Shown here in pieces: positions 5,007-29,596 of a stretch of DNA of 30,702 nucleotides. Within the stretch, counting starts at the first letter, position 1. Every line of letters begins with the position of its first letter. The DNA is from Herpetosiphonaceae bacterium (GTDB lineage Bacteria; Chloroflexota; Chloroflexia; Chloroflexales; Herpetosiphonaceae): NCBI GenBank assembly GCA_013813565.1, contig JACCRK010000382.1, positions 1 to 30,702 on the forward strand, given 5' to 3'. The notes under the pieces were generated by a model. It saw nothing but the letters and a program-made list of their open reading frames with translations, was not told where the DNA came from and did no database searches. The position numbers and the translations under genes were made by a program.

Positions 5007-6500
5007 TTATCGCGCATTCTCACCATACAGGCGCTGGCGCAGCGTTGTGATATCGTTGCGCAGCCGGGTATCGGTGGTGATATCCGCAGTAATTTTGTTG
5101 ATCCCATGCATGACCGTGGTGTGATCGCGTCCGCCGAGAAACGCGCCGATCTCAACCAGCGACGCATCGGTCTCCTCACGCAGCAGATACATCGCGACCT
5201 GGCGTGGCAGCACCACGTTGCGGGAGCGGCCGCGGCCCTTGATCGCCCGCTGGTCGATGCTGAAGTGCTGCGAGATCTCGCGGAAAATATCTTCGTGGGT
5301 CACGCGCTTGCGCCGGCTGGTATCGAGCAAATCGGCCAGCGCCGCCGCTGCGACCTCAACCGTGACCGGCGTGCGGCTCAGATTGGCGTAGGCCACCACG
5401 CGGTTGAGGCAGCCCTCCAGCTCGCGAATATTGCTTTGAATTCGGTGGGCCAGAAAATCAATCACATCTGATGAGACCGGCACCTGCAGGGCCTCGCCCT
5501 TGGCGCGCAGAATCGCGGTGCGCGTCTCCAGATCGGGGTTTTGCACATCGACGATCAGGCCCCACTCGAAGCGCGAGCGCAGCCGCTCTTCAAGCGTCAG
5601 GATGGCCTTTGGTGGGCGATCGGAGCTGAGCACAATCTGTTTGCCGGCGCCATGGAGGGTATTGAACGTATGGAAAAATTCTTCCTGGGTGCCTTCTTTG
5701 CCAGCAATAAACTGAATATCATCAATCAGCAAAATATCAATATTACGATAGCGAATACGGAACTCTTCGGTCTGCTGGCGGCGAATCGCATTGATCAGAT
5801 CGTTGGTAAATTTTTCAGAGGAAACATATAAAATATTGATCTCGGGGTTGCGCTCAAGGGCATAGTTGCCGATCGCGTGGAGCAAGTGGGTTTTACCCAG
5901 TCCCACGCCGCCATAGAGAAACAAAGGGTTGTAGGCCTGCGCGGGGTGCTCGGCCACCGCCAGACAGGCGGCGTGGGCCAGGCGGTTGGAGCCACCGACA
6001 ATAAAAGATGAGAAGGTGTAGCGTGAGTTCAACACCGATGAGCGATTGCCCTGCTCACCAAGCTGCATCTGGCCATTGCTTGAGGTCGGCAGCGGCTGGC
6101 CGAGCGCTTCTTTGAACGATGTGCCCAGGCTTGGCAGCGCTGGCTCGGGGATGGCGGCGGCGACCACCTCAGGCGTGGCTACGACGGTCTCACTGAGTGT
6201 GCTTTGGCCATTGCCATTGCCATTGGTATGAATAATGACCCGCACATTTACTGGATAGCCTAGCACATCACCGAGCGAGCGCTTGATTGAGCTCATAAAG
6301 CGATCTTCGATCACTTGCTTGATGCTGGTGTTAGGGGTGCCTAGAACCACCAGATCGCCATTGAGTGCCACCAGCGAGGTCGGCTTCAGCCATAAGTCGT
6401 AATCGTAGCGTACCGTTTGGGCCTGGAGAGCGCTCAACGCGGTATGCCAAATTTGCTTTATATCCAATGAAGCCTCCTCGATGCTGGTGTTATGTTCCAC
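5007..6500 (-). CDS. dnaA: Chromosomal replication initiator protein DnaA
   Basis: AAA+ Walker [17 protein letters not shown], Walker [10 protein letters not shown], sensor/box VII SSDRPP and RSRF are present. The C-terminal DNA-binding domain has [13 protein letters not shown]...[11 protein letters not shown] (DnaA signature). The start is GTG at 6500. Confidence 0.95.
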
Positions 6501-10800: not shown

Positions 10801-12765
10801 ATGCTTCGTTCGAAGCGCCAAATCGTGAGCTTCTTGCTCATGTTGGTACTCTTGGTTCCTGTGCTCGCCGCTTGTGGTGGTACCACCGCAACAACTGCAC
10901 CTGCCACGACTGCTCCCGCTGTTGCTACAACTGCACCAACTTCAGATACTGCTCAGGCTCCAACCGCTGTTGCAACGGAAGCTGCACCAGTTGCAACGGA
11001 AGCTGCTCCAACAGTTGCGCCTACCGAAGTCGCCGCCACTGTTGAGCCAACCGCTGCCCCTGGTGGCGCTGGCCCAGACGCCAACAAAACCATCATCGTT
11101 GGTATGACCCAGTTCCCCGACACCCTGTTCGGGATTGAGTCACAGTCAAGCGCCACCACCCAGGTGTTGGCCGCAATTCAGCCAGCCTGTATCACCACGC
11201 TGAGCTACGAATATCAGCCAGTCTGTTTCGAAAAAGTCCCCGCATTTGCCGATGGCGATGCTGTGACCGAAACCGTCACTGTTGATAACACCTACGAAGG
11301 CAATATCGTGATCAACGATGAGCTGATCACCGATACCACCACCCTGACCGAGTCACTTGATCTGACCCAGGTCCAGGTAACCTGGAAACTCATTGAGGGT
11401 TTGACCTGGGAAGATGGCGAGCCGGTCAAGGCCAGCGACTTCGTGTTTGCTGCCAACCTGTACCAGGATCCAGGCATCCAGAACGCTTCACGCTTCACCC
11501 TTGACCGCACCCAGAAGTTCGAAGCCCCAGATGAATCAACCATCGTTTGGTATGGCGCTCCTGGCTACAGCGATGCCACCTACTTCTTGAACGTTTTCGG
11601 CCCTGAGCCAGAGCACGTTCTTGGCTCGGAAGACCCGGCCACCATTGGCAGCAGCGAGTACGCTAGCCAGCCGCTGGCCTACGGCCCCTACAAAATTGTC
11701 GAGAACGTTCCCCAGGAAAGCACCACCCTGGTTGCCAACGAAACCTACTGGAAAGCCAGCGAAGGCTTCCCCAAAGTTGGCAACATCGTCTTCAAGTATC
11801 TGACCAGCGAAGATCAAGTGCTGCAGCAGCTTGAAGGCGGCGAGATCGACGTCGTTGGTTCGATTGGCCTGACCCTGGCCAACGCCCCAGCTCTTGATGA
11901 CCTGGAAGCTGCTGGCAAAGCAGTCGGCCAGTACGTCCCGGCAACCGTGTGGGAGCACATGGACTTCGCCGTTGAGCGTGGCGATGGTCAAGAGTCCTTC
12001 TTCACCGATGCGAACGTTCGCAAAGCCGTCGCGTACGGCATCAATCGTCAGGAAATCATCGACCAAGTGCTGTTCGGCAAAACCGTCACGATGAACAGCT
12101 TCCTGCCCGACACCCACTGGGCTTATCCACCGAATGGTGAAGGCCTCGAAGCCTACGAGTATGACACCGCCATGTCGGCCGAGCTGCTTGATGCTGCTGG
12201 CTGGACCCTTGGTGCTGACGGCATCCGTGAAAAAGATGGCCGCAAGTTCCAGGTACAGATGTTCACCACCGAAGGCAACGCAACCCGCCAGGCAGTGGTC
12301 CAGATCATTCAGGAAAACCTGAAAGAAGTTGGCATTGACGTCGTGTTGAACTTCGTTCCCGCCACCGCCGTTCTGTTCAAGAACGGTGCCGATGGTGTTC
12401 TCTCAGGCCGTACCTATGACCTGGGTATGTACGCCTGGGTCAGTGGCTCCGAGCCATCAACCGCCCTGTATCTCTGTGATCAAATCCCGACCCCAGAGAA
12501 CAGCTACGCCGGCCAGAACAACACCGGCTGGTGTAACCCAGAGTACGATGTATCTGCTCTGGCCTCACAGTCGGCCACCGAGCGAGCTGATCGTATTCCG
12601 TTGGTCATCGAAGCTCAGAAAGTCTTCAACGATCAGCTGCCAACCCTCCCGCTGTATCAGCGCGTGAACCTCGGCGCATATCGACCTGCTGTTACCGGTC
12701 TCCAGCTTGACCCAACCAGCCAGGTTGACTTCTGGAACATCGAAACCTGGGATATCTCGGAGTAA
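10801..12765 (+). CDS. ABC transporter substrate-binding lipoprotein, family 5 (DppA/OppA/NikA-like), with a Pro/Thr/Ala-rich linker
   Basis: A signal peptide with lipobox LAAC|GG is followed by a low-complexity linker (TTATTAPATTAPAVATTAPTSDTAQAPTAVATEAAPVATEAAPTVAPTEVAATVEPTAAP) and then an SBP_bac_5-like body (WEDGEPVKASDFVF, FKYLTSEDQVLQQLEGGEIDVV). Confidence 0.9.
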   Translation: MLRSKRQIVSFLLMLVLLVPVLAACGGTTATTAPATTAPAVATTAPTSDTAQAPTAVATEAAPVATEAAPTVAPTEVAATVEPTAAPGGAGPDANKTIIVGMTQFPDTLFGIESQSSATTQVLAAIQPACITTLSYEYQPVCFEKVPAFADGDAVTETVTVDNTYEGNIVINDELITDTTTLTESLDLTQVQVTWKLIEGLTWEDGEPVKASDFVFAANLYQDPGIQNASRFTLDRTQKFEAPDESTIVWYGAPGYSDATYFLNVFGPEPEHVLGSEDPATIGSSEYASQPLAYGPYKIVENVPQESTTLVANETYWKASEGFPKVGNIVFKYLTSEDQVLQQLEGGEIDVVGSIGLTLANAPALDDLEAAGKAVGQYVPATVWEHMDFAVERGDGQESFFTDANVRKAVAYGINRQEIIDQVLFGKTVTMNSFLPDTHWAYPPNGEGLEAYEYDTAMSAELLDAAGWTLGADGIREKDGRKFQVQMFTTEGNATRQAVVQIIQENLKEVGIDVVLNFVPATAVLFKNGADGVLSGRTYDLGMYAWVSGSEPSTALYLCDQIPTPENSYAGQNNTGWCNPEYDVSALASQSATERADRIPLVIEAQKVFNDQLPTLPLYQRVNLGAYRPAVTGLQLDPTSQVDFWNIETWDISE

Positions 12766-13041: not shown

Positions 13042-14109
13042 GTGATGACGGTCTACCTTATTCGCCGGTTCTTTCAGATTATTGTTGTGCTGTTTCTCTC
13101 GACTGCGGTGATCTATACCCTCTTTGCGCTGGCCCCGAACCCGCTCGATGAGCTGCGGCAGAGCACCGATCCTAAAGCTCAGGCATCAAATGCAGATATC
13201 GCGCGCTTATCTAAACAGCTTGGTCTAGACAAGCCCTGGTTTTTGCAGTATCCAGTCTGGCTGGCCGGTGATACCTGGCTGGATTCGATTGGCTATGGCC
13301 AATTTGTTGGCGATCGTATGGGTATCTTGCGTGGTGACTGGGGCACATCGTGGAAGTATCAGAAAAATAAACCGGTGCTTGGCCTGATTAAAGATCGTCT
13401 GCCAGCAACCTTGTGGCTGATGGTCAGCTCGACCTTGATCTCTCTAATGATTGGTATTCCGCTCGGCGTTTTCTCGGCGGTCCGCCAATATTCATTTTTT
13501 GACTACTTTTTTACTTCGTTCAGCTTTATCGGGATCTCTATTCCCGCCTTCTGGTTTGGGCTGCTGATTATTTCAGCCTCGCTGGTCGCTAAAAATAAAG
13601 GCTGGTTCTACTTTCCAGCCGGCGACGTTCTCGCCATTCGTGATTACAAAGTGCCGCTGCTAGGGATGGTGGAGGCCGGCTCATTCCTTGACCGGGTTAT
13701 GCATCTGGTGATGCCGGTTACCGTGCTGTCGCTGCTGAACCTGGCTGGCTGGAGCCGCTTTATGCGCGCCAGCATGCTGGAAGTGCTGAGCCAGGACTAC
13801 GTGCGCACTGCCCGCGCCAAGGGTGTCCGCGAGCGAATCGTCATCTATAAGCATGCCTTTCGGAATGCCTTGATTCCGCTGATTACCCTGGTTGTATTTG
13901 CCATTCCAGGCGTCTTTGGTGGCGCAATCCTGACCGAACGAGTGTTCAACTACAAAGGTCTGGGCTTCTTGTTTATTAGCGCGCTTAACTTAAACGATTA
14001 CCCGCTGGCCATGGCCTTCCTGCTGATCTCTTCGATCTTGCTGGTGCTGGCTACATTGCTGGCTGATATTCTGTATACCTTTGTTGATCCACGGATTCGC
14101 CTTGACTAA
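13042..14109 (+). CDS. ABC transporter permease, DppB/OppB-like
   Basis: Six or more TM helices are visible, and the EAA-like loop has YVRTARAKGVRERIVIYKHAFRNAL. A GAGGTG Shine-Dalgarno precedes the ATG. Confidence 0.9.
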   Translation: MMTVYLIRRFFQIIVVLFLSTAVIYTLFALAPNPLDELRQSTDPKAQASNADIARLSKQLGLDKPWFLQYPVWLAGDTWLDSIGYGQFVGDRMGILRGDWGTSWKYQKNKPVLGLIKDRLPATLWLMVSSTLISLMIGIPLGVFSAVRQYSFFDYFFTSFSFIGISIPAFWFGLLIISASLVAKNKGWFYFPAGDVLAIRDYKVPLLGMVEAGSFLDRVMHLVMPVTVLSLLNLAGWSRFMRASMLEVLSQDYVRTARAKGVRERIVIYKHAFRNALIPLITLVVFAIPGVFGGAILTERVFNYKGLGFLFISALNLNDYPLAMAFLLISSILLVLATLLADILYTFVDPRIRLD

Positions 14110-14173
14110 GCCCTGGCGCCGTCTTACGCGGTCTACGATTCTGTAATATCCTTTGTCTGAAAGGCACACCATA

Positions 14174-15139
14174 ATGGCAGTTACAAATACCCAGCTTGAG
14201 GCGCGTGAGGTCGCAAAAGAAGAATATCAGCATCCCTGGCTCGATATTGCCAAACGGTTTATGCGGCACCGCCTGGCAATCGGCAGCTTAATCGTGATGT
14301 CCCTAATTATTTTGTCGGTGTTTATTGGGCCATTGTTTTCGCCCTTTACCGAACGCTCCCAATCACCCCGCCAAAAGAACCTGGCTCCATTAAGCACATT
14401 TCAGGTTGATAAAGAAATTCGTAACATTGATAACACTGTGCGCACACCAGCCGGTGGCACGGCTACAGCCTTCTTTGGCACCGATGAAATCGGCCGTGAC
14501 CTGCTAACCCGCTTGTTGTATGCCGGACGTGTATCGTTGTATATTGCATTTGCTGTGACCCTGCTTAGCGAGATCATTGGCGTAACGATTGGCGTTATCA
14601 GTGGCTATTTCGGTGGCTTTGTTGACACCATGGCAATGCGCTTTGTTGACTTTCTCAACACCTTGCCGCTCCTGCCGATCCTCCTGATTATTACAACCAT
14701 CATCAAGCCAAGCATTAACTTTCTGATCGTGATTCTAGTGTTCTTCAGCTGGACCGGTGGCGCCCGCTTGATGCGGGGACAAATTTTGAGCTTACGTGAA
14801 CAAGAATATGTTTCGGCCTCGCGGGCGCTCGGCGCTTCAAATATCCGCATTATGTTTCGTCACCTGGTACCAAATGCAATTGCGCCCAATATCGTCAATG
14901 CCTCGCTGAGCTTGAGCGGTGTCATGATTACCGAAGCGGCCTTGAGCTTCCTTGGCTTCGGCGTGAAACTCCCGGCCGCCTCATGGGGCAATATGCTTAA
15001 GGATGTAAACCTGTCTATTCTGGAAACTTATCCCTGGCAGGCCTTCTTCCCTGGGTTTGCGATTTTCATCTGTTCGCTGTGCTTCAACTTTATTGGCGAT
15101 GGCTTGCGTGACGCGCTTGACCCGCGTGCTAAACGTTAA
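14174..15139 (+). CDS. ABC transporter permease, DppC/OppC-like
   Basis: TM helices are present, and the conserved loop has YVSASRALGASNIRIMFRHLVPNAIAP. The ORF is open from a TTG at 14153, but the first ATG at 14174 is the more likely start. Confidence 0.85.
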   Translation: MAVTNTQLEAREVAKEEYQHPWLDIAKRFMRHRLAIGSLIVMSLIILSVFIGPLFSPFTERSQSPRQKNLAPLSTFQVDKEIRNIDNTVRTPAGGTATAFFGTDEIGRDLLTRLLYAGRVSLYIAFAVTLLSEIIGVTIGVISGYFGGFVDTMAMRFVDFLNTLPLLPILLIITTIIKPSINFLIVILVFFSWTGGARLMRGQILSLREQEYVSASRALGASNIRIMFRHLVPNAIAPNIVNASLSLSGVMITEAALSFLGFGVKLPAASWGNMLKDVNLSILETYPWQAFFPGFAIFICSLCFNFIGDGLRDALDPRAKR

Positions 15140-15178: not shown

Positions 15179-16147
15179 GTGGCTCAATCAGATGTCTTGC
15201 TGAAGATCAAAGGCGTGAAGACGTATTTCTACACCGAAGAAGGGGTCGTTCACGCGGTTGATGGTTTGGATTTTCAGGTACGACGCGGTGAAACACTCGG
15301 CATTGTGGGCGAGTCTGGCTGTGGTAAAAGTGTTACCTCTATGTCCATTCTGCGTTTGCTGGGCAAAACAGGGAAAATTGTCGAAGGTGAAATTATCTTC
15401 GACAATGAAAATATGCTTGAGCTCAACGAAGAAGAGATGCGGAAAATTCGTGGGAACCGCATTTCAATGATTTTCCAGCAGCCAACAACATGTCTCAACC
15501 CGGTGTTCCGCATTGGTGATCAGGTCATGGAGGCGCTGGAAATCCATCAGGGGTTATCCGGTTCTGAGGCCCGTAAGCGGGCGATCGAGCTGTTTGTCCT
15601 GGTCGGTATCCCCGATCCGGCCCGCCGCATGCGCTCGTTTCCCCACGAGATCTCTGGCGGCCAGGCCCAGCGCGTGATGATCGCGATGGCGCTGGCCTGT
15701 AACCCGGAGCTGCTGATCGCTGATGAGCCAACCACCGCACTTGACGTAACTATTCAGGCGCAGATTTTGGATTTGATGCGCGAGCTACGCGAAAAAGTAA
15801 ACACTGCCATCATTCTGATCACCCACGACCTGGGGGTGATCGCCGAGATGGCCGAAAATGTGATGGTGATGTACGCTGGAAAAGCCGTTGAGTACGCTCC
15901 GGTTGAGCAGCTCTTTGCCGCACCGAAACACCCCTATACCCAGGGGCTGATCGCTTCAACTCCAATCTTAGGCGTGGTTCGCGATGAGCTGGCCACGATT
16001 CCTGGGCAGGTTCCCAGCCTGCTTAATCCACCGAAAGGCTGTCGTTTTGCGCCACGGTGTGCATATCGCATGGATCAATGTAGTGAAGAAGAGCCACCGT
16101 TGATCAAACTCGAAGGCGATCGATTGGTGCGTTGTTGGCTCTATTAG
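15179..16147 (+). CDS. ABC transporter ATP-binding protein, DppD/OppD-like
   Basis: Walker [11 protein letters not shown], signature LSGGQAQRV, Walker [13 protein letters not shown] and an oligopeptide-transporter C-terminal extension (CRFAPRC...C) are present. The start is GTG with an AGGGG Shine-Dalgarno. Confidence 0.9.
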
Positions 16148-16163
16148 AAAAACTTGAGGATCT

Positions 16164-17183
16164 GTGATGACTGTTTCTCCGCTAAACACGACTGCACCAA
16201 CGGTGGCTGCCACTACTCAGGATACATTGTTAGAAGTTCGTGATCTTAAAAAGCATTTTCCAATCAAGGGCGGTATCCTGCGCCGGACGGTAGCCAATGT
16301 TAAGGCGCTTGATGGCGTCAGCTTTGCCATCAAGCGGGGTGAAACCCTGGGCCTGGTCGGTGAGTCGGGCTGTGGTAAAACCACCACCGGCCGCACGGTT
16401 CTCCGCCTCATCCAGGCGACCTCGGGCGAGGTCAAATTTGAAAATCAGGATGTTATGAAGGCCGGCCGCGCGGAAATGCGCAAGCTGCGCCGCGACATGC
16501 AGATTGTCTTTCAAGACCCGTATGCGTCGTTAGACCCACGGGTTCCGGTCGGGGTGAGCATTGCTGAAGGGCTGCGGATTCACGAGATTGGCAACGATAA
16601 AGAGCAGCGCGATCGGGTCAAGGTGGTGCTGGAGCGGGTCGGCATGAATGCCACCCACATGCGCCGTTTCCCCCACGAGTTCTCCGGCGGTCAGCGCCAG
16701 CGCATTGGCATTGCTCGGGCACTGGTGATGCAGCCCAAGCTGATCGTCTGCGATGAGCCAGTCTCGGCCCTCGATGTTTCCATCCAGGCCCAGGTCTTGA
16801 ACTTGCTCAAGGATTTGCAGGAAGATCTTGGCCTGACCTATCTGTTTATCGCCCATAATCTGAGCGTGGTTGAGCATATCAGCGATCGGGTTGGCGTGAT
16901 GTATCTCGGCCGCATGGTCGAGCTGGCCAGCCGCGATCAGCTCTTCAGCCACCCGATGCATCCCTATACCAAAGCCTTGATGTCGGCGATTCCGCTGCCA
17001 GACCCGACCATCAAGCGCGAGCGGATTATCTTGCAGGGCGATGTTCCCAGCCCGGTCAATCCGCCCAGTGGCTGCTACTTCCACCCACGCTGCTGGCTGG
17101 CCCAGGAAGTCTGCAAGCAAGAGGATCCGGTCTTCGAGGAGAAGGAGCCCGGCCACTGGGCGGCCTGCCACTTCGCGCAGTAG
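16164..17183 (+). CDS. ABC transporter ATP-binding protein, DppF/OppF-like
   Basis: Walker [11 protein letters not shown], signature FSGGQRQRI, Walker [13 protein letters not shown] and a C-terminal Cys/His-rich tail ([14 protein letters not shown]) are present. Confidence 0.9.
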
Positions 17184-17216
17184 CCAGCTTTTCTTCGCAC
17201 CATGCCCCATAGTCTA

Positions 17217-17246
17217 GGCGCTGATCATTCGTGATCGGCGCCTTTT
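17217..17246 (+). terminator. Intrinsic terminator after the second ATPase gene
   Basis: GGCGCTGATC (17217-17226) and GATCGGCGCC (17233-17242) form a 10-bp stem with one G.U pair. The loop is ATTCGT, and TTTTCGTT follows. Confidence 0.55.
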
Positions 17247-17347
17247 CGTTCGACAAAAAGCACTGGCTGCGGTAGACTGCCCGGTGGTCAAAAACTGCTC
17301 CAGCGGTGACTTACTGGGCCGCTGTGTTTAGAGATAAAGGTGACTCC

Positions 17348-19111
17348 ATGAAACAACGCTCTCCATCTCGTTTGCTCCTCCTGGTCCTGCTGGCGCTGTT
17401 AGGCGCATGTGGTCTCGAAGGCGGCGCTGTGCAGCCAACCCCGCCGCCAGCGGTGCCAACGCCAACCCAGGCCCCAACCGCCGATCCAAAAAATCAGGGC
17501 TGGATCGTTGGCCTGACCGAGGAGCCGCTTGATCTTTACCCCTACAGCTATGCCGCGCGCACGGCTTCAGCCTTGCTGGAGCTGCTGTATCCGGCACCAT
17601 TGCAGATTGTCAACGAAGCCTATACCACCACCGGCGTGCTAGAGCGGGTTCCGTCGTTTGAGAATGGTGATGTTGCCTATGTCAACACCAGCGCCTATCT
17701 TGACCCAACCGGCGCCATAACCCAGACCAAGACCGATGTGATCACCAGCGTCCGCCAGCTGACGGTCACCTATCGCTGGAACAAAAATTTGCGCTGGTCA
17801 GATGGTACACCCCTGACTGCCCAGGACTCGGTTTTTGCCTATAATCTGCTCAAAGGCAGCGCCTCAACCCCACAGATTGCGATTCAGAGCGACCTGACGG
17901 CCGACTATGTGACCATCGATGATCACACGACCAAGGCCTATTTGCCACCGCTCCGCGATGAGCCAAACTATCTGGAGACGGTCTGGATTCCGCTGCCCCG
18001 CCATAAATTTGCTGAAGATACTACCGCGCAGGCCGTCAATGATACGCTGGCCCGCCAGCCACTTGGCTATGGACTGTATCGGCTGGAGGCCTGGATCGAG
18101 GGGCGGGAGTTGAATTTTATCCGCTCTGACACGGCGCTCGATCCAGCTATTCCCGCGAAGCTGACCGTACGTCTCTACCCCGATCTCTCGACCTTGCGCG
18201 ATGACGTCTTAAGCAGTCGGGTTGATGTGGCCTGGACTGAACAAATGCCCGATACTATCGCCGCCAGTCTGCAGGCCGATACGCGGGCCAAAACGCTCCA
18301 GTCCTGGATGATTCCCACGCCGATCTGGGAGCATATCGATATGAATCTGGCGGTGGTTGCCCTGCAAGATATTCGGATGCGGCACGCGCTGGCCTACGGT
18401 TTTGATCGTGCCGGCCTCAGCACCAGCATCTACGGCGCCGATCAGGCCGTCTGGGATAGCTGGATCGCGCCAACGTCGTGGGCCTATGGCGGCACTGCCA
18501 TAAGCCGCTATACCTACGATCCGGATAAAGCCCGTGGATTGCTCGATGAGATGGGCTACACGGATACTGATGGTGATGGCCTGCGGGAAAATCCCGCAGG
18601 TGCCCTGTTTGCCCTCAAGCTGGTGACCAGCGAACAAACCGCGCTGCGCGAGATCATCAGCGACCGTTTTATTGCCAATATGGCCGACATTGGCCTGAGG
18701 ATTGAGCTGGAGACGGTGCCAACCCAGGATCTGTACAGCCAGCAGGGACCGCTCTTTCAGCGCCGCTTTGAGCTGGCCCTCTTCGGCTGGCTGCGGGCGC
18801 TTGACCCTGATGGCGCGGTGCTATGGAGCTGTGCCGCCATTCCTAACCAGGTCAATAACTTTACCGGCGACAACTTTACCGGCTGGTGCATCGACACCGC
18901 CGATCAGGCCATTCGAACCGCCACCGGCTCGCTGGACCAGACGGTGCGCAAGAACGCCTATATCGAGCATCAACAAATTTTCACCCGCGAGCTACCGATC
19001 TTACCGGTTATCACACGCCAGATGACCGTCCTGGCCCGGCCAAGTATTCAGGGCCTTCAGCCTGAGACCTTTGCTCCACCCACCTGGAACATCCAGCACT
19101 GGCAGCGCTAA
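17348..19111 (+). CDS. Second family-5 ABC substrate-binding lipoprotein
   Basis: Signal peptide and lipobox (MKQRSPSRLLLLVLLALLGAC|GL) followed by an SBP_bac_5-like body. An AAAGGTGA Shine-Dalgarno precedes the ATG at 17348. The ORF track's 17306 start adds 14 residues without an SD. Confidence 0.85.
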   Translation: MKQRSPSRLLLLVLLALLGACGLEGGAVQPTPPPAVPTPTQAPTADPKNQGWIVGLTEEPLDLYPYSYAARTASALLELLYPAPLQIVNEAYTTTGVLERVPSFENGDVAYVNTSAYLDPTGAITQTKTDVITSVRQLTVTYRWNKNLRWSDGTPLTAQDSVFAYNLLKGSASTPQIAIQSDLTADYVTIDDHTTKAYLPPLRDEPNYLETVWIPLPRHKFAEDTTAQAVNDTLARQPLGYGLYRLEAWIEGRELNFIRSDTALDPAIPAKLTVRLYPDLSTLRDDVLSSRVDVAWTEQMPDTIAASLQADTRAKTLQSWMIPTPIWEHIDMNLAVVALQDIRMRHALAYGFDRAGLSTSIYGADQAVWDSWIAPTSWAYGGTAISRYTYDPDKARGLLDEMGYTDTDGDGLRENPAGALFALKLVTSEQTALREIISDRFIANMADIGLRIELETVPTQDLYSQQGPLFQRRFELALFGWLRALDPDGAVLWSCAAIPNQVNNFTGDNFTGWCIDTADQAIRTATGSLDQTVRKNAYIEHQQIFTRELPILPVITRQMTVLARPSIQGLQPETFAPPTWNIQHWQR

Positions 19112-19143: not shown

Positions 19144-20121
19144 ATGAACGTTGAGAGCTTGCCATTAGTGCTGCCAGGATTGCTCGCCCTGCCCATCATC
19201 TGGACGGTGATGCGGCCGATGGAACGCTTTATCATGATGCGCGCAATGTGGCGAATCTGGCCGGTTGTTCGCCCAATTGTTGGCTGGCTGTGTATTGTTC
19301 TGGGGATTCTCGGCATTATTCTGCCGATTTTGCAGGGGATTATCTTTTTGGTGATTGGCGCAACCCTGATCGGCCGGCACCATCCCCTGATCCGCTGGTT
19401 TCGCGTGCGCTACAAGCAGCTGCTGCGCACCTGGAGGCGCTCGCCAAATCGGCTGCTGGCCTGGATCGGCCGGCGCGGTGAGCAGGCGCTGGCGATTCTT
19501 GAGCGGCAAATGCTGCATCTGCGGCAGCATTTTCAGCTCCGGGCCAAGGCGCGGCGGCGCTTCCGGGTGGTGCTGATTGCCCCCGCTGCTGTTCGGCAGC
19601 AGCTTAATCACTGGCGCTCGCGCTATGATCCCGCCTATCGCAACGATTTACCGCCACACATTGTGCTGGTGGCAACCTCGCGCTCATCCCACCGACCGCA
19701 GTTCGAGCAGGATCTGGCGCGCCTGTGTGGGGCGCTGGAGCCTTTTCAAATTAAGCTCGACCAGGTTGTTCTGGATTCGCATGAGCACCGTATTTTCAGC
19801 ACTGTCGGCAGCGGAGCGCCCGCGATTCGGTCGCTGCGTGAACAAATCGCCAGGATTGCGCCAGCCGAGCTGCGGTTTTCACAACGGCAGCTCTGGCCCT
19901 GTCTGACGCTTGGCAAAATTCGCCATCAGTCCAGCCTCCGCAGCGCCTACGAGTCCATTCAGCGCGGGTTTGAGCCACAAACCTGGTCGGCAACCGAGGT
20001 CGTCCTGCTGGAAGAACGCATTGGATCAATCTGGCACGAGGTGCGCCTTTTTTCGTTTAACCGTCGTTTATTGGCCCGAAGCAACGACGCTTCGCCGCTC
20101 ATTGTCGAGGAGGCACTCTAG
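19144..20121 (+). CDS. Fusion protein: N-terminal DUF454/YbaN-like (PGPGW-related) membrane segment plus C-terminal 2H-phosphoesterase (LigT/2'-5' RNA ligase)-like domain with non-canonical motifs
   Basis: The N-terminus has hydrophobic helices and GWLCIVLGILGIILPILQGIIFLVIGATLIGRHHPLIRWF, which matches the YbaN/DUF454 signature (LGxxGxxLPxLP..F.L.A...R..P). The C-terminal 200 aa have LigT-like topology (FRVVLIAP...PPHIVLVATS...FQIKLDQVVL...WPCLTLGKIRH...EVVLLEERIG..WHEVRLFSF), but the two H-x-T/S-x catalytic motifs read H-I-V-L and C-L-T-L. Confidence 0.55.
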   Translation: MNVESLPLVLPGLLALPIIWTVMRPMERFIMMRAMWRIWPVVRPIVGWLCIVLGILGIILPILQGIIFLVIGATLIGRHHPLIRWFRVRYKQLLRTWRRSPNRLLAWIGRRGEQALAILERQMLHLRQHFQLRAKARRRFRVVLIAPAAVRQQLNHWRSRYDPAYRNDLPPHIVLVATSRSSHRPQFEQDLARLCGALEPFQIKLDQVVLDSHEHRIFSTVGSGAPAIRSLREQIARIAPAELRFSQRQLWPCLTLGKIRHQSSLRSAYESIQRGFEPQTWSATEVVLLEERIGSIWHEVRLFSFNRRLLARSNDASPLIVEEAL

Positions 20122-21362
20122 TGGAAACAACCATCGCAACCGCCCAGCAACAGTTCGACATCGCCGCTGAACTTCTTGGACTTAGCTCGGATACCCGTGA
20201 GGCGTTGCGCGCCCCGAAGCGTGAGCTTATCGTCAACTTTCCGGTTAAGCTGGATAATGGACGCACCCATACATTCACTGGCTATCGGATCCACCACAAT
20301 ATTTCGCGTGGCCCGGCGCTCGGCGGTCTGCGCTACAGCCCGACTGGCACGCTTGAGGAAATGCGGGCGCTGGCGATGTGGATGACCTGGAGCTGTGCGA
20401 TTGTCCAGATTCCCTATGGCGGAGCCAAGGGCGGCATCGTCTGTGACCCCAAAACCCTCTCGCTCAGTGAGCTAGAGCGGATCACCCGGCGCTATGTTAC
20501 CGAGATCACGCCCCTGATTGGCCCGGAGCGCGATGTGATGATGCCCGATCTGAATACCAACGCCCAGACGATGGCCTGGGTGATGGATACCTACTCGATG
20601 CAGCATGGGTATACGATGCCTTCGGTGGCAACCGGGAAACCGGTGCAGGTTGGTGGCACTCATGGTCATGGCCAGGCGACCGCTCGTGGGGTGGGCTACT
20701 CGATTCAGCAGGCCGCCAAGTATCGCCGCCTTGAGCTGAACGGCGCTCGGGTGGTGATGCAGGGATCGGGGGTGACTGGGCGGCTGGTGGCGCAGTACCT
20801 GGAGGAGGCTGGCGGTCGGATTATTGCCGCCAGCGATGATTTTACCGGCGTGGTGGCCGAGGATGGCTTCAGCGCCGCCGCCCTGACCGAGCACCGGGTC
20901 GCCAACGATACCGTCGCCGGACTGCCAGGCACCCGGCCCATCAGCAATGCCGAGCTGCTTGAGCTGCCCTGCGATATTCTAGTCCTGGCCGCCGGGCAAA
21001 ATGAAATTACCGGAGCCAACGCCCATCGGATCAAGGCGACGGTGGTTGCCGAGCTGGCCAACGGCCCAATCTCGCCGACCGCCGATGCAATCTTAGGCAA
21101 TAAAAATATTCTGGTCGTGCCGGATATCCTGGCCAACGCCGGCGGGATCGTGGTCTCGTACTTTGAGTGGGTCCAGGGCCTACAGGAATTTTTCTGGACT
21201 GAGCGCGAAGTCCATGGCGAGCTGGAGCAGACCATGCAGCGGGCTTTTGGTGAAGTGATGAATGTCGCCGAGACGCGCCATATCTCCCTGCGAACCGCTG
21301 CCTATCTGCTGGCCGTCGAGCGGGTTGCCAAGGCTATGGCGGTCCGAGGAATCTATCCCTAG
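20121..21362 (+). CDS. gdhA: NAD(P)-dependent glutamate dehydrogenase (Glu/Leu/Phe/Val dehydrogenase family)
   Basis: The catalytic Lys motif PYGGAKGGIVCDP and the Rossmann motif QGSGVTGRLVAQYL are present across 413 aa. The GTG start overlaps the upstream stop (TAGTG), and a GAGGAGG Shine-Dalgarno lies 7 nt upstream. Confidence 0.85.
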   Translation: METTIATAQQQFDIAAELLGLSSDTREALRAPKRELIVNFPVKLDNGRTHTFTGYRIHHNISRGPALGGLRYSPTGTLEEMRALAMWMTWSCAIVQIPYGGAKGGIVCDPKTLSLSELERITRRYVTEITPLIGPERDVMMPDLNTNAQTMAWVMDTYSMQHGYTMPSVATGKPVQVGGTHGHGQATARGVGYSIQQAAKYRRLELNGARVVMQGSGVTGRLVAQYLEEAGGRIIAASDDFTGVVAEDGFSAAALTEHRVANDTVAGLPGTRPISNAELLELPCDILVLAAGQNEITGANAHRIKATVVAELANGPISPTADAILGNKNILVVPDILANAGGIVVSYFEWVQGLQEFFWTEREVHGELEQTMQRAFGEVMNVAETRHISLRTAAYLLAVERVAKAMAVRGIYP

Positions 21363-24731: not shown

Positions 24732-26048
24732 TTGCGTTTGACATCATCTACCGATATGACAGCACGTATTTTAGTCGCTGACGATAATGAGGCGTTAAGC
24801 GAACTCCTGGAGATTATTCTGCTGGAGAATGGCTACGAGGTCGTGCTTGCGGCAAATGGCGACGAGCTGCTGCGTAAGGCCCAGACCACCTCACCCGATC
24901 TCATGCTGGTCGATATTATTATGCCCTATATGGATGGCTATGAGGCGATCCGCCAGCTGCGCAACGATACCCGCCTGGCCCATATTCCAATTATTGTGCT
25001 GACGGCATGTACGTCGCTGCAGGATGTGGTGACCGGCTTTGAGACCGGTGCCGATGACTACATTACCAAGCCTTTCCAGATGCCGGAGCTGCTGGCGCGG
25101 GTCAAGGCCCAGCTTCTTCGCGCTAACCGGCGGCCGGTCCAGAACCCGCTCACCGGTCTGCCAGGCAATACGCTGATCGAGGAAGAGATCAGCCATCGGC
25201 TGCGCATCGGCGAGCCATTCGCACTGTTGTATATCGACCTGGATAACTTCAAGGCCTTCAACGACACCTATGGCTTTGCCCGCGGCGACCAGGTGATTAA
25301 GCTGCTGGCCGGGCTGCTGACCGACCTGAAACAGCAGGAGGCCAACGAGCGGATTTTTATTGGCCATATCGGCGGCGATGATTTTGCGGTGCTGCTGCCG
25401 CTTAACTCGGTTGTGCCATTCTGTGAACAGCTGACCGCCCAGTTTGATGTTCAGGTGCCAGCGCTCTACGACCCGGAGGATATTCAGCGTGGGTATCTGG
25501 CCCGCGAGGATCGCTATCACATCGTGCGCCAGGTGCCGATCCAAAGTGTTTCGATTGGGGTGGTAACCACCAAAAATCGCTCGCTCACCTCATATCACGA
25601 TATCAGCCGGGTGGCGGCCGAGATGAAACATCTGGCTAAAAAACAGCCGGGTAGCGTGTATATTATCGATCGCCGCTCGCAGCAGGTGTTGGTTCCCCAG
25701 GAGCGGCGCAAGCGGCGCCCCACCGTCTATGTTGCTGGCAGTGAGGGCCTGATTAAGCAGCAGATCGTAGCTGCCTTTGAGCAGCAGATGCTGGTGATTA
25801 CCAGCTACGACCCGGCAACCAACCCTGAGCAGCCTGATCTGGTGACCGTGATTGGCGCTTCGATCTCAACAGCGATCAGCGAGATGGAACGAGACTGGCC
25901 CGATGTGCCGATCATCGCCATCGTGCCTGGAGATGCTGATGATCCATCAACAACAGAGTTCGGGATGAAAACATCGATCAAGCCAACGGTTCCGGTTGGG
26001 GATTATCTCTCTTTGGCACTGCACCTGTTGCGGCTGGAGGCTCGATGA
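24732..26048 (+). CDS. Response regulator: REC receiver plus GGDEF diguanylate-cyclase domain (GGDDF variant) plus a C-terminal region of about 110 aa of unknown function
   Basis: The REC domain shows ILVADDNE...LMLVDIIMPYMDG...LTACTS..D...GADDYITKPF. The GGDEF domain shows NPLTGLPGN..., ALLYIDLDNFKAFNDTYGFARGDQVI and IGHIGGDDFAVLLP. Candidate starts are TTG at 24732 or 24738 (the latter with a GAGGGGG Shine-Dalgarno 6 nt upstream) or ATG at 24756. Confidence 0.85.
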   Translation: MRLTSSTDMTARILVADDNEALSELLEIILLENGYEVVLAANGDELLRKAQTTSPDLMLVDIIMPYMDGYEAIRQLRNDTRLAHIPIIVLTACTSLQDVVTGFETGADDYITKPFQMPELLARVKAQLLRANRRPVQNPLTGLPGNTLIEEEISHRLRIGEPFALLYIDLDNFKAFNDTYGFARGDQVIKLLAGLLTDLKQQEANERIFIGHIGGDDFAVLLPLNSVVPFCEQLTAQFDVQVPALYDPEDIQRGYLAREDRYHIVRQVPIQSVSIGVVTTKNRSLTSYHDISRVAAEMKHLAKKQPGSVYIIDRRSQQVLVPQERRKRRPTVYVAGSEGLIKQQIVAAFEQQMLVITSYDPATNPEQPDLVTVIGASISTAISEMERDWPDVPIIAIVPGDADDPSTTEFGMKTSIKPTVPVGDYLSLALHLLRLEAR

Positions 26049-29000
26049 TCGGGTGGGTCATTGCTCTTGTGGTGTTGCTGTGCCTTATTCTGGCACTTAA
26101 TCTGCGCCCAACAGGCCAGATCCGACGGCGAACAATCGAGCTACGCAGCTGGCTCAACCGCTTCAGGCGGAGTCGCCGTCCGACACCACCGCCACATGCT
26201 AGCGCGCCGACTGTGCGCGGGCGCAATTTGCGCTCGCCACGCCGGTCATTCACGGTGCGGATTCGTGATGAGGTGGCCTCACGTGGCGGCAAGGGCGGGC
26301 TCGTTCTGTTCGGGATTTTTTTCTTGGCAGTATTGCTCTTTATGCGGATTAGAGGAATGCCTGGATCAGCTCCCGAGCGCCCAAACCTCCAGGTTGCGGT
26401 GGCCCACTTCACCGCGCCCGATGGCGCGCCCGCGCCCGAGGGCGCCTCGGTGATGCAGGCTCTGGTTGATGAGTGGACCCAGGGCGATACCCACCGCCTG
26501 ACCCGCCCCCTCGGACTGATCCCCCTCAGGCAATCCATCCCCGATTCCCAGACCGCCTTTGAGATCGCCCAGAGCCAGCGCGCCGATGTGGTGATCTGGG
26601 GCAGCATTGAGCCGGGCGGCACCGCCAACACCGCCAGCCTGCGCCCACGGCTGCTGTGGTGGCCACGGCGGGCGTTGCCAACCGACCGCTCGCTCAGCGT
26701 GCGCGAGCGGCTCGCGCAGCCGGTGGTCTATGAGCTGGCGGTGACTCCCCTGAATGGTCAGGTTGTGCTGGGCCAGATTCTGAACACCCTCGACCTGTAT
26801 CAGTCGGCGGAGTACGACGCGGTACTGCAGTCGGTCAATGTGCTGCTGGACCAATATGCGGTCGGTTATGCTGTCGATGGGCAGCTGCGCCCGGATCTGC
26901 TGCTCTCGCTGCGCGGCAGCATCGCCTCGATGCAGGAGCAGTGGTCGGCGGCCGAGCTGGACTATCGGGCGGCAATTGAGGCGACCAGCCCTGGCCGCGC
27001 TGAATACTGGAATAACCTGGCGGTGGCCCTGGCGGCCCAGGGGCGGATCGATGAGGCTGGACAGGCGCTCAACACGGCTCAGGCGCAGAGCGACCAGGGC
27101 GGCGGTAATCTGGCGGCAATTCAGCTGAATCGCGGCCTGATCAGGCTGCGTGGCCCCGACCCGGCGGCGGCGGCGGCGAGTCTGGGCCACGCCCATGAGC
27201 TGTTGCCGAATGGTGTGGTGACCTTGGTGTCGCTGGCTGAGGCGCAACGGCGGGCGAATCAGTTTGATCAAGCGGTGGCGGCGATCAATCGGGCGCTCGA
27301 GCTTGCGCCAAACGATCCGCTGGTGCAGCTTGAGTCCAGCCGGATCGAGCTTGCGCAGCTGGTCGGGGTCGGTGACCAGCCGCTGTGGGAGCTGGAGATC
27401 GCCCCTGAGCTGCCCCATGACAGGCTGACAGCCCTGCGCACGCGGCTGGACAGCGCTGTGGCAACCCTGGAGAGTATGGTTGTCGGCGAGCGGCAGCAGG
27501 CGGCCAGCGATGATGCTTCAGGCCGGCCGGAGTCCGGGCGGGTTCACGAGGGCACCGCCCGTCAGCTCAGCAGCCTGCTGAGCGAGGCGCGCTACTGGCG
27601 CTCGGTGGCGCTGACTGAAGAAGGGGTCGCCGCCGCCCGCAATCGTCCAGGCGGGCTGCGCGGGCTATGGAATAGCATGTTTGGCGATGATACACCGCTG
27701 GTGCAGGCGCAGAAAACCCTGGCACCCTTAGCCAAATCCGAAGAGAACAACTACGATATTCAGCTCCAGAGTGGTCGCGTCTACCGTCTGCTCGGCTCGT
27801 CGAAAGTTGCGCTGGACTACTATACGAGGGCGTCTGAGATCAACCCCAACCGCCCGGAGGCCTGGTATGGGCTGGCGAGCACTCGCTGGGAGCGCGAGGC
27901 CGAAAGCCCTGAGCGCAACGAGGCAATTCGGGCATGGCTAGCCCAATCGATTGCGGCGGACCCGCGGTTTACCCCGGCCTATTTGTTAATGGCGCGGCTT
28001 GAGCTACGCGACAAACAGTGGGCCGCAGCATTGCCCTCCCTGCAATGGCTGAAGCTTAATCGGCCTGACCAGATCCCGGCCCAGATTGCGCTAGGCGAGG
28101 CGCAGCGTGAGCTGGGCCAGCTTGCTGAAGCCGAGCTCACGCTCCTGCCACTGGCAAATGCCAACAATGGGGCGGCGCTGGTGGAGCTGGCGCGGGTGTA
28201 TCTACAGGCGAGCCAGGTTGAGGCCGCCGAAACCGTGCTGCGGCGGGCGCTGGAGCTGGATAGCACCAATGCGATTGCCGCCTATGAGCTTGGCCGCTTG
28301 CTGCAAAACCAGGGCAACTACGCCGGGGCGGAACAGGCCTACACGCTGGCGATCGCCGCCAATGAGGCGTATATGGAGGCGCATCTGGCGCTGGGCCAGC
28401 TCTATGGCCGCTATCTCAACGATCCCCAGCGGGCCGTGACAGCGTATCGTCGGGCGATTGAGGCCGGTGGCACTGATGCCCGCAACTTTGAGGATCTTGG
28501 ACGCGAGTTTTTAGAGATCGGCCAGTATGCTGAGGCTGCCGATGCGCTTGAGCAATCGATCGCGCTCAATCCGAATGTGCCTGAGTCACGCCATGCACTG
28601 GCCCAGGCTTATCGGGAGCTTGGTCGCTACGATGCCGCTCGCGAGCAGGATCGGGCGGCGATTGCCCGCAAGGCCGACGGCCTCTACATCGATGCGCAGA
28701 TTGGCATCGGTGAATCGTTTCGGCGCCAGGGCCGACCGGACGAAGCGATCGAGGCCTACAATGTGGCGCTGGATGCGGCGCCCGACTCGGTGCCTGCCTA
28801 TGTCGGCCTCGGGCGCACCGCAGCGGATAAACAGGATTGGCAGGCGGCAATTGGCTACTATAATCAAGCCCTAGCCCGCGATGCCGATGATGCGAATGCT
28901 CATTTCTGGCTGGGCCAGGCGCTGGTGGAGCAGGGCCACCATGAGCTGGCGCTGGCTGAGTTCCAGCTGGTGCTGGCAAACCCAGCCACCAGCAACACCG

Positions 29001-29596
29001 ATGCCTTCTATGGCGCCGGTCGGGCCTATATGCGGATGGCTGAAGGCTTATACTACGATGATCCAGCGAAGGCAGCCCAGTATGATGCCGAGGCGCGCTC
29101 CATGCTGGATGCGGCGCTCAGCCGACGGCCAACCTTTCCCCAGGCCCTGCTGGAGCGCGGGATTCTCAATGAGCGTCAAGGCCAGGTTCAGGCGGCCCTG
29201 GCCGATTATGGCCAGGCGGCCGAGCTGAATCAGCTTGATGCTACGGCCTTGTTTTTACAGGGCAAGCTATACCTCAGCCTCAACAATGTTGCGTCTGCCA
29301 CCGAAGCCCTGGAGAATTCGGTGCGCCGCGATCCCAATAGTGCCACCTCGCTGTACTGGCTGGGCCGGGCCTATCGGGCCCAAAGTCGCCCTGCTGATGC
29401 GATTAAGAGCTTTAGCCGCGCAGTTTCGATCAACGGCGGCTATACCGAGGCACGCTACTTCCAGGGTCTGACCGAGGAAGAGGAGAATCAGCTCGAGGCC
29501 GCCCGTAGCTCCTACGAGGCGATTGTGGCGCAGTCCACCCCCGATGATCGCTGGCGCCAGCAGGCCGAACAGCGCCTGCGCGAGCTAGGCCAGTAG
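26045..29596 (+). CDS. Large membrane-anchored tetratricopeptide-repeat (TPR) protein
   Basis: An N-terminal TM helix (WVIALVVLLCLILAL) and a second hydrophobic segment (GLVLFGIFFLAVLLF) are followed by more than 20 TPR-like 34-aa repeats (W.NLA.A...G..DEA...L..A...P....A...LG). The start overlaps the upstream stop (ATGA) with a GGAGG Shine-Dalgarno. Confidence 0.85.
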   Translation: MIGWVIALVVLLCLILALNLRPTGQIRRRTIELRSWLNRFRRSRRPTPPPHASAPTVRGRNLRSPRRSFTVRIRDEVASRGGKGGLVLFGIFFLAVLLFMRIRGMPGSAPERPNLQVAVAHFTAPDGAPAPEGASVMQALVDEWTQGDTHRLTRPLGLIPLRQSIPDSQTAFEIAQSQRADVVIWGSIEPGGTANTASLRPRLLWWPRRALPTDRSLSVRERLAQPVVYELAVTPLNGQVVLGQILNTLDLYQSAEYDAVLQSVNVLLDQYAVGYAVDGQLRPDLLLSLRGSIASMQEQWSAAELDYRAAIEATSPGRAEYWNNLAVALAAQGRIDEAGQALNTAQAQSDQGGGNLAAIQLNRGLIRLRGPDPAAAAASLGHAHELLPNGVVTLVSLAEAQRRANQFDQAVAAINRALELAPNDPLVQLESSRIELAQLVGVGDQPLWELEIAPELPHDRLTALRTRLDSAVATLESMVVGERQQAASDDASGRPESGRVHEGTARQLSSLLSEARYWRSVALTEEGVAAARNRPGGLRGLWNSMFGDDTPLVQAQKTLAPLAKSEENNYDIQLQSGRVYRLLGSSKVALDYYTRASEINPNRPEAWYGLASTRWEREAESPERNEAIRAWLAQSIAADPRFTPAYLLMARLELRDKQWAAALPSLQWLKLNRPDQIPAQIALGEAQRELGQLAEAELTLLPLANANNGAALVELARVYLQASQVEAAETVLRRALELDSTNAIAAYELGRLLQNQGNYAGAEQAYTLAIAANEAYMEAHLALGQLYGRYLNDPQRAVTAYRRAIEAGGTDARNFEDLGREFLEIGQYAEAADALEQSIALNPNVPESRHALAQAYRELGRYDAAREQDRAAIARKADGLYIDAQIGIGESFRRQGRPDEAIEAYNVALDAAPDSVPAYVGLGRTAADKQDWQAAIGYYNQALARDADDANAHFWLGQALVEQGHHELALAEFQLVLANPATSNTDAFYGAGRAYMRMAEGLYYDDPAKAAQYDAEARSMLDAALSRRPTFPQALLERGILNERQGQVQAALADYGQAAELNQLDATALFLQGKLYLSLNNVASATEALENSVRRDPNSATSLYWLGRAYRAQSRPADAIKSFSRAVSINGGYTEARYFQGLTEEEENQLEAARSSYEAIVAQSTPDDRWRQQAEQRLRELGQ

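Follow-up and report, generated by a model that had tools for sequence, protein, structure and literature searches.

What does a catalytic fold do in the cell when the residues that define its chemistry have been replaced throughout a family and the gene is nonetheless kept? The question is raised by a gene in a 30,702-nucleotide stretch of DNA from a Herpetosiphonaceae bacterium (contig JACCRK010000382.1; this whole stretch is referred to here as the window), where an intact open reading frame (ORF) of 325 codons, running from ATG to TAG, encodes a membrane module fused to a domain of the 2H phosphoesterase type. The 2H superfamily is defined catalytically by two His-x-Thr/Ser-x tetrads, and this pair is found neither in the window protein nor in any of the 16 members of the fusion family that we aligned. 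We consider it probable that the canonical chemistry of the fold, phosphodiester hydrolysis or transesterification, has been lost, and on balance we lean toward the view that the protein is a membrane-tethered, non-catalytic 2H module with a binding or regulatory role, whose cleft may still accommodate a phosphate-bearing ligand.

An earlier, sequence-only reading of the window had assigned the C-terminal domain to the 2H/LigT type, and this assignment is borne out: at the level of fold, as judged from profile matches and a predicted structure, the domain is a two-lobed alpha+beta member of the 2H phosphoesterase superfamily. For residues 147-290, the match to Pfam PF13563 (2_5_RNA_ligase2) has E 1.6e-14 and spans profile positions 2-147 of 152, and the score of 54.6 bits, set against a gathering threshold of 27 bits, places the protein in that family. 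YjcG of B. subtilis (PDB 2D4G) is matched weakly from the single sequence and at E 1.5e-7 from the family profile. An AlphaFold2 model, for which 14 homologues served as input, reaches a mean predicted local distance difference test score (pLDDT) of 81.8, with values of 85-95 through the C-terminal domain, and a Foldseek search of the PDB with this model as query returned 35 matches at E<=1e-3, almost exclusively 2H proteins (rank 33 is a mitoribosome chain). The top match was again YjcG (E 7e-9, target template-modelling score 0.87, root-mean-square deviation 2.2 A, 170 columns), followed by E. coli LigT/ThpR (ranks 2-4 onward), plant and Deinococcus cyclic phosphodiesterases (CPDases), Usb1 and AKAP18.

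Narrower family models score the domain low. The YjcG equivalog (NCBIfam NF010223/PRK13679) reaches 21 bits against a cut-off of 129 and covers residues 142-208 only, LigT_PEase (Pfam PF02834) reaches 18.6 bits against 23.3, and the extended LigT/ThpR motifs HxTxxF and HxTxxR are replaced by HIVLVA (no Thr, no Phe) and CLTLGK (no His, Lys for Arg). Furthermore, the nearest standalone relative of the domain in an exhaustive hidden Markov model (HMM) search of 1.84 billion cluster representatives was found at E ~1e-13 only, and the domain is therefore far diverged. The name under which the protein stands in the database, "2'-5' RNA ligase family protein", probably over-states its function.

It is in the catalytic motifs that the fusion family parts from these relatives. 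We aligned 16 fusion-family members and their 27 nearest standalone relatives to the family profile of the C-terminal domain; H172-I-V174-L falls opposite the canonical PHITL and C253-L-T255-L opposite the canonical PH[VLI]T[LIV], and in the model both tetrads stand at the starts of beta-strands, as in 2H enzymes. All 16 fusion members read L-P-P-H-[I/V/L]-[V/I/L]-[L/V] and W-P-[C/S/A/G]-[L/I/V]-T-[L/I/V]-[G/A]-K, whereas the standalone relatives read x-P-H-[I/V/L]-T-[L/V] and x-P-H-x-T-[L/I/V]-G, with both canonical tetrads present, ~82 residues apart, in 24 of the 27. The earlier claim that both tetrads are altered (to HIVL and CLTL) extends, as such, to the whole family, and no orthologue carries a canonical HxTx motif. 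The accompanying description, His kept beside Val in the first motif and Cys replacing His in the second, is accurate for the window sequence, but Cys253 is not a property of the family: position 253 is C, S, A or G, variable and always small, and position 174 is V, I or L in every member. Invariant throughout are H172, T255, K258, W251 and P252, together with the charged residues R184, R216, R248, E290 and E291. Beyond H172, the family alignment contains no invariant His in the C-terminal domain, and Cys253 does not take over from the catalytic His that was lost; a compensating residue such as H213 or H215 in 'SHEHR' was considered and ruled out, position 215 being H, Q or W. As a separate observation, two distant multidomain 2H relatives, P0126 (835 aa) and P0149 (535 aa), have Asn for Thr in a proximal motif that reads 'PHINVL', and P0149 looks from its sequence to be fused to a TatD-like hydrolase region.

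The cost of such replacements can be judged from 2H enzymes in which the equivalent residues have been mutated. In E. coli ThpR, His43 serves as general acid and His125 as general base, Thr45 helps to coordinate the leaving O3', and the phosphate is held by Thr127 and Arg130; of the alanine mutants, T127A behaves as wild-type, whereas H43A, T45A, H125A and R130A have no activity (PMC4201822). In CNPase, all His/Thr tetrad mutants are essentially inactive, and His-to-Ser mutants, H309S for example, continue to trap nucleotides at the site (PMC4643303). Neither the window protein nor any of its orthologues has the equivalents of Thr45 and His125; those of His43 and Thr127 are kept in all of them, and the spacing of the motif would put K258 in the +5 register of Arg130. 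Because either of the changes, made in ThpR, abolishes activity, and because there is no other invariant His, the canonical activity is probably gone, a loss supported by this mutagenesis, and the sensor or pseudoenzyme proposed in the sequence-only reading is plausible.

A less conventional possibility, to which we give a minor share of belief, is that the protein is still an enzyme, a tethered phosphoesterase working by a non-canonical mechanism (through H172 and E290/E291, or a bound water at residue 253) and possibly on a different, membrane-proximal or lipid-linked substrate. The invariance of H172, T255 and K258, joined by the five newly invariant charged residues, would suit such a mechanism, as would purifying selection on the domain and the existence of a few standalone relatives (P0130, P0138 and P0147) that likewise lack one Thr. 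The mutants of CNPase speak on both sides: a water in H309S partly fills the place of the imidazole, which fits a position 253 that is always small, and T232A may keep a slow turnover, product having been seen in crystals, but H309S and H309Q are inactive (PMC4643303). ThpR T45A and H125A are each inert on their own, and the window protein combines both types of change. Furthermore, a catalytic residue would not be expected to vary, as position 253 does, among C, S, A and G, and a second invariant His is missing.

Whatever the protein does, purifying selection acts on every part of its gene. Ratios of nonsynonymous to synonymous substitution rates (dN/dS), calculated pairwise by NG86 for pairs with unsaturated dS, are 0.08-0.23 over the whole gene, 0.06-0.20 for residues 140-305, 0.07-0.20 for the membrane part and 0.08-0.53 for the basic linker, higher there than in the flanking parts. 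We attach practically no weight to the notion that the gene is artefactual, that it is a pseudogene in decay, or that a metagenome-assembled genome (MAG) has here produced a quirk of sequencing or annotation. The window does come from a MAG, and the gene has a shorter start in its public annotation, but the same architecture and motifs recur in cultured H. aurantiacus, H. geysericola, H. giganteus and H. llansteffanensis and in independent metagenomes, the reading frames are unbroken, and every segment has a dN/dS far below 1; a quirk of sequencing or annotation in particular is ruled out by orthologues that share the degenerate motifs and by dN/dS below 0.25.

The two ends of the protein deserve brief comment. 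The public record MBA3471346.1 describes the same gene product as 300 aa begun at M26, which leaves out the first predicted transmembrane (TM) helix. Since residues 1-22 are conserved at the protein level among orthologues, and several orthologues lack a Met at positions 23 and 26, M1 is the likelier start, and the annotated product is probably 25 residues too short. At the other end, the motif of the C-terminal tail (Table 1) is kept in the clade of the window protein and is absent or different in the genus Herpetosiphon; in the model this tail has a pLDDT below 50.

The membrane module that precedes the 2H domain consists of a predicted TM helix, a hydrophobic hairpin and a strongly basic linker. 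No basic residue stands before the first helix (residues 3-22 in the model) and five Arg lie in the loop that follows it, residues 24-43. The next 34 residues (44-77) form a hydrophobic stretch with an invariant L-P-I-L-Q-G turn at its centre; no other block of the family is as conserved as this hairpin, in which G54, L56, G57 and I59-G65 (ILPILQG) are invariant. The basic linker is modelled as two helices (81-98 and 103-137) with a pLDDT of 83-90. Read by the positive-inside rule, this distribution of charge would place the N-terminus outside, followed by the first TM helix, a cytoplasmic loop (24-43), the hairpin, and a cytoplasmic tail and 2H domain.

A YbaN-type signature had been recognized in this N-terminal part, and the signature is real; membership of the YbaN family is another matter. 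The match to Pfam DUF454 (PF04304; E 6.4e-6, 26.6 bits) falls below the cut-off of 35.1 bits and joins residues 45-99 to profile positions 6-63 of 115, the NCBIfam DUF454 equivalog NF007818 reaches 26.4 bits against a cut-off of 163, and PGPGW (PF09656, cut-off 23.3 bits) has no match in the window protein, whose turn reads LPILQG and not PGPGW. With only the first half of the profile matched, the N-module is, on this evidence, a homologous hairpin and not a full member of DUF454/YbaN.

The nature of the module becomes clearer from its own relatives. In the HMM search, most of the matches to query positions ~30-140 were standalone proteins of 100-150 aa, which align over the whole module, basic tail included, at up to 45% identity. 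A profile made from this alignment matches ~100 such proteins, assigned, where they are named, to Chloroflexaceae, Oscillochloris and Chloroflexales; all are called 'hypothetical', about three quarters have no Pfam assignment, and proteins annotated as YbaN/DUF454 appear at the weak end. Two relatives (P0258 and P0242) score 35.5-37.5 bits, just over the DUF454 cut-off, across the first ~50 positions only, and the PGPGW threshold is passed by distant relatives such as P0259. These comparisons point to a distinct, as yet unnamed family of small Chloroflexales proteins, distantly related to DUF454/PGPGW, that has been fused whole to the 2H domain. An unfiltered six-frame HMM search of five Chloroflexales loci (three distinct contexts) found no 2H gene beside the standalone N-module genes, whose neighbours encode ThiS, MoaE, Fpg and a split photolyase-like pair; gene adjacency in these loci thus offers no counterpart to the fusion. 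The standalone modules at three of these loci (L016 5001-5360, L017 5001-5369 and L019 5001-5393) are 119-130 aa long, have no Pfam match and form a coherent family; in two of the three distinct contexts the module lies upstream of ThiS-MoaE-Fpg, and in L017 it adjoins an apparent split photolyase/cryptochrome (a 275-aa FAD_binding_7 protein plus a 163-aa ORF).

Table 1. Positions of the fusion gene, its parts and the adjoining features, numbered along the window.
Feature	Position	Strand	Basis and remarks
Terminator-like 12-bp hairpin (17216-17243), then promoter-like TCGACA-17-TAGACT (17250-17278)	17216..17278	+	Pattern scan; upstream of binding-protein gene
Family-5 solute-binding protein gene (peptide/Opp-type)	17306..19111	+	PF00496; ends 32 nt before fusion gene
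Fusion gene, whole	19144..20121	+	ORF listing and sequence; TAG stop at 20119-20121
Predicted TM helix 1, residues 5-23, N-terminus outside	19156..19212	+	Kyte-Doolittle 19-residue windows 1.4-1.9
DUF454/PGPGW-like hydrophobic helical hairpin, residues 44-78, PIVGWLCIVLGILGIILPILQGIIFLVIGATLIGR	19273..19377	+	Kyte-Doolittle up to 2.8; sub-threshold DUF454 match
Very basic helical linker, residues 79-139	19378..19560	+	17 K/R against 2 D/E; isoelectric point (pI) 12
YjcG-like 2H-fold domain, residues 140-305	19561..20058	+	PF13563, profile match to 2D4G, Foldseek; predicted cytoplasmic
Degenerate proximal tetrad H172-I-V174-L	19657..19668	+	Canonical H-x-T/S-x; start of strand 172-179 in model
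Degenerate distal tetrad C253-L-T255-L-G-K258	19900..19917 (C253-L-T255-L 19900-19911)	+	Canonical H-x-T-x-x-R/K; start of strand 253-258
C-terminal tail, residues 306-325	20059..20118	+	Ends R-S-x-x-A-S-x-L-I-x-E-E-x-L
TAGTG, fusion stop overlapping dehydrogenase GTG start	20119..20123	+	Sequence
Glu/Leu/Phe/Val dehydrogenase gene	20121..21362	+	PF02812 and PF00208

The fusion of the two parts, which the sequence-only reading had not recognized as a described architecture, is real and conserved, and it is restricted to the Herpetosiphonaceae. A word-indexed search of 5.8 billion proteins gave 14 proteins, all of 295-325 aa, one of which (P0001) is the window's own annotated product (100% identical) and the other 13 are homologues of 41-79% identity. 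The HMM search gave only three full-length clusters, plus fragments, and when a single genome from each of 185,579 species was scanned with peptide patterns from the hairpin, eight loci were found, every one in this family. The carriers comprise H. aurantiacus DSM 785, H. geysericola, H. giganteus, H. llansteffanensis, Herpetosiphon sp. and MAGs. Our literature search found no paper on the architecture of a membrane module joined to a 2H-like domain, nor one on the function of DUF454.

In each of the 11 distinct loci the fusion gene lies between the binding-protein gene and the dehydrogenase gene, in that order and on one strand, and the trio is kept where its flanks differ (L003 is without the upstream permease and ATPase genes, and L002 has other genes downstream). 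In five loci (the window, L003, L006, L007 and L008) the end of the fusion gene directly adjoins or overlaps the dehydrogenase start, and the gap between the two genes is 32-97 nt in L001, L002 and the genus Herpetosiphon (41-97 nt within Herpetosiphon). From this neighbourhood a link of the fusion protein to amino-acid catabolism may be inferred, but as all of the loci come from one bacterial family, the conserved order argues only weakly for it.

The same arrangement bears on a purely structural role, in which the 2H fold would hold a partner (the dehydrogenase or the peptide ATP-binding cassette (ABC) importer) at the membrane and the old cleft would be empty. The close junction with the dehydrogenase gene in five loci, the unvarying place of the fusion gene and the conserved C-terminal tail would all be in keeping with a scaffold, and the Foldseek matches include kinetoplastid mitoribosome subunits (ranks 33 and 36-38), which we read as non-catalytic. 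On the other hand, a mere scaffold does not require the polar cleft residues H172, T255 and K258 to be invariant, the standalone Chloroflexales N-modules do not adjoin dehydrogenase or 2H genes, the gene order could simply be inherited, and in Herpetosiphon the gap to the dehydrogenase gene is accompanied by a promoter-like site. We find a scaffold with an empty cleft unlikely.

Upstream of the binding-protein gene, a terminator-like hairpin is followed by a promoter-like site (Table 1), both predicted from consensus matches only. At L006, an orthologous locus of 62% identity, the same layout is found (3987-4051) with identical hexamers and with stem bases that have changed in such a way that pairing is preserved; a promoter-like site also stands before the dehydrogenase gene in H. 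aurantiacus. It is possible that the upstream site marks the start of a transcription unit of three genes, for the binding protein, the fusion protein and the dehydrogenase. No Rfam family was matched anywhere in the window.

Given these observations, it is reasonable to postulate that a complete small Chloroflexales membrane protein (TM helix, hairpin and basic amphipathic tail) was fused to a YjcG-like 2H domain, and that this anchor would hold the domain at the inner face of the membrane, where its cleft might bind a phosphate-bearing ligand (a nucleotide, for example, or a 2',3'-cyclic or 2'-phosphate end) without cutting it. The module would be expressed together with the peptide-binding protein and the glutamate-type dehydrogenase. 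That ligand binding has been retained is suggested by purifying selection on the domain and by the cleft motifs being among its most conserved parts.

Several points weigh against this interpretation. The inactivity of the domain is extrapolated from other 2H enzymes at ~15-20% identity, and the cleft is drawn from motifs and not from the positions that H172, T255, K258, R184, R216, R248, E290 and E291 take in the model; as the motif strands are core beta-strands, their conservation may be partly structural. The C-terminal domains of the fusion family carry a net charge of +6.3 on average, against +0.4 in standalone relatives, but this surplus is not universal, and an argument from charge for polyanion binding, which we considered, is weak, since the domains of the genus Herpetosiphon are near neutral (pI 7.3-9.4). 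AlphaFold draws residues 25-76 as a single continuous helix with no hairpin, at a pLDDT of 65-79; we hold this to be less likely than the hairpin, because the membrane would then lie between the two basic regions. Common descent, and not function, may account for the conserved gene order. Last, no protein of the neighbourhood evolves faster than the fusion protein: between the window and Herpetosiphon (L009-L015) it is 44-46% identical, where OppF stands at ~82%, the dehydrogenase at 75%, ScpA at 65% and the binding protein at 64%.

A more specific version would have the dead 2H enzyme serve as a membrane receptor that binds but does not cut a 2',3'-cyclic nucleotide, or an RNA 2',3'-cyclic or 2'-phosphate end, arising when RNA is broken down, and that in response controls the dehydrogenase or peptide uptake. 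We offer this as speculation with a small chance of being correct; if true, it would represent a bacterial 2H pseudoenzyme turned sensor in predatory filamentous bacteria.

Among the other neighbours, genes for an Opp-type transporter, ScpA, an SPFH protein and a PfkB kinase are syntenic in the family. The Opp-type ABC genes (permeases at 13042-14109 and 14153-15139, ATPases at 15179-16147 and 16164-17183) are bracketed by two family-5 binding-protein genes, at 10801-12765 and 17306-19111, and the second of these appears to begin a unit of its own with the fusion and dehydrogenase genes. Farther off, dnaA (5007-6500, minus strand; Bac_DnaA, DnaA_N and DnaA_C domains) suggests a probable location of the window close to the chromosomal origin of replication, and it is adjoined by a gene for a STAND-type NACHT NTPase of 981 aa with C-terminal HEAT repeats (7157-10102, minus strand). 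On the plus strand, the last 4 nt of a response-regulator-GGDEF gene (24732-26048) are shared with the start of a gene for an all-TPR protein of 1183 aa (26045-29596), a pair that is also present in L006.

Since 2H enzymes are known in conflicts with phage, and a non-catalytic nucleotide-binding 2H domain on an anchor could in principle be a receptor, we also considered a component of anti-phage or cyclic-oligonucleotide signalling, in which the domain would degrade or sponge signalling nucleotides after the manner of phage Acb1-type 2H enzymes. A search of PADLOC-DB matched no family at E<=1, and the neighbourhood is a housekeeping one, syntenic across the family, with no cyclase or effector gene; we judge a role in defence to be very improbable. 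A binding or regulatory module is our preferred reading. If the inference holds, the protein would be a natural 2H pseudoenzyme, kept by selection after it lost a His and a Thr and attached to the membrane, a case for the reuse of 2H domains in binding instead of catalysis, and it would provide a first functional handle on the small DUF454-related membrane-protein family of Chloroflexia. Its reach is limited by the confinement of the fusion to one bacterial family and by the lack of a tie to a specific pathway.

The position of the protein among known systems may be seen by comparison with its nearest counterparts. The best match in both sequence and fold, YjcG, has in common with it a W-R-x-x-Y-D-P helix and the PPH strand, but is a soluble protein of ~170 aa with a proximal tetrad that aligns as canonical (PPHLTL), where the window protein has HIVL and CLTL and an additional membrane module of ~140 aa. 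ThpR/LigT of E. coli has the same fold, and the distal Thr and a basic residue at +5 (K258 here, R130 in ThpR) are common to both; ThpR requires H43, T45, H125 and R130, whereas the window protein has no equivalent of T45 or H125 and no Phe at +5 of motif 1. For the membrane module, the hairpin signature G-W-x-x-x-x-L-G-x-L-G-x-x-L-P-x-L is shared with E. coli YbaN/DUF454 and with PGPGW, but the match is confined to the first ~50-60 positions of the 115 in DUF454, and a basic helical tail takes the place of the second hydrophobic half.

Two eukaryotic proteins offer parallels in layout. In AKAP7/AKAP18 (Foldseek rank 34) a 2H domain likewise sits within a protein that mainly anchors or scaffolds, and one report credits AKAP7 with 2',5'-phosphodiesterase activity (PMC4161237); unlike the window protein, AKAP7 keeps canonical motifs and has no TM module. 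Vertebrate CNPase, called 'membrane-associated' in another report (PMC3290555), likewise has its 2H domain held at the membrane. Its fold match here is weak (Foldseek ranks 41, 49 and 50), and it is highly active, with both HxT motifs in place; its His-to-Ser mutant is nevertheless a laboratory analogue of the state that we propose to have arisen naturally. CNPase is attached to the membrane by a C-terminal lipid modification and not by TM helices. In its working, the window protein would most resemble a naturally 'substrate-trapping' 2H domain, anchored to the membrane as CNPase is, by other means.

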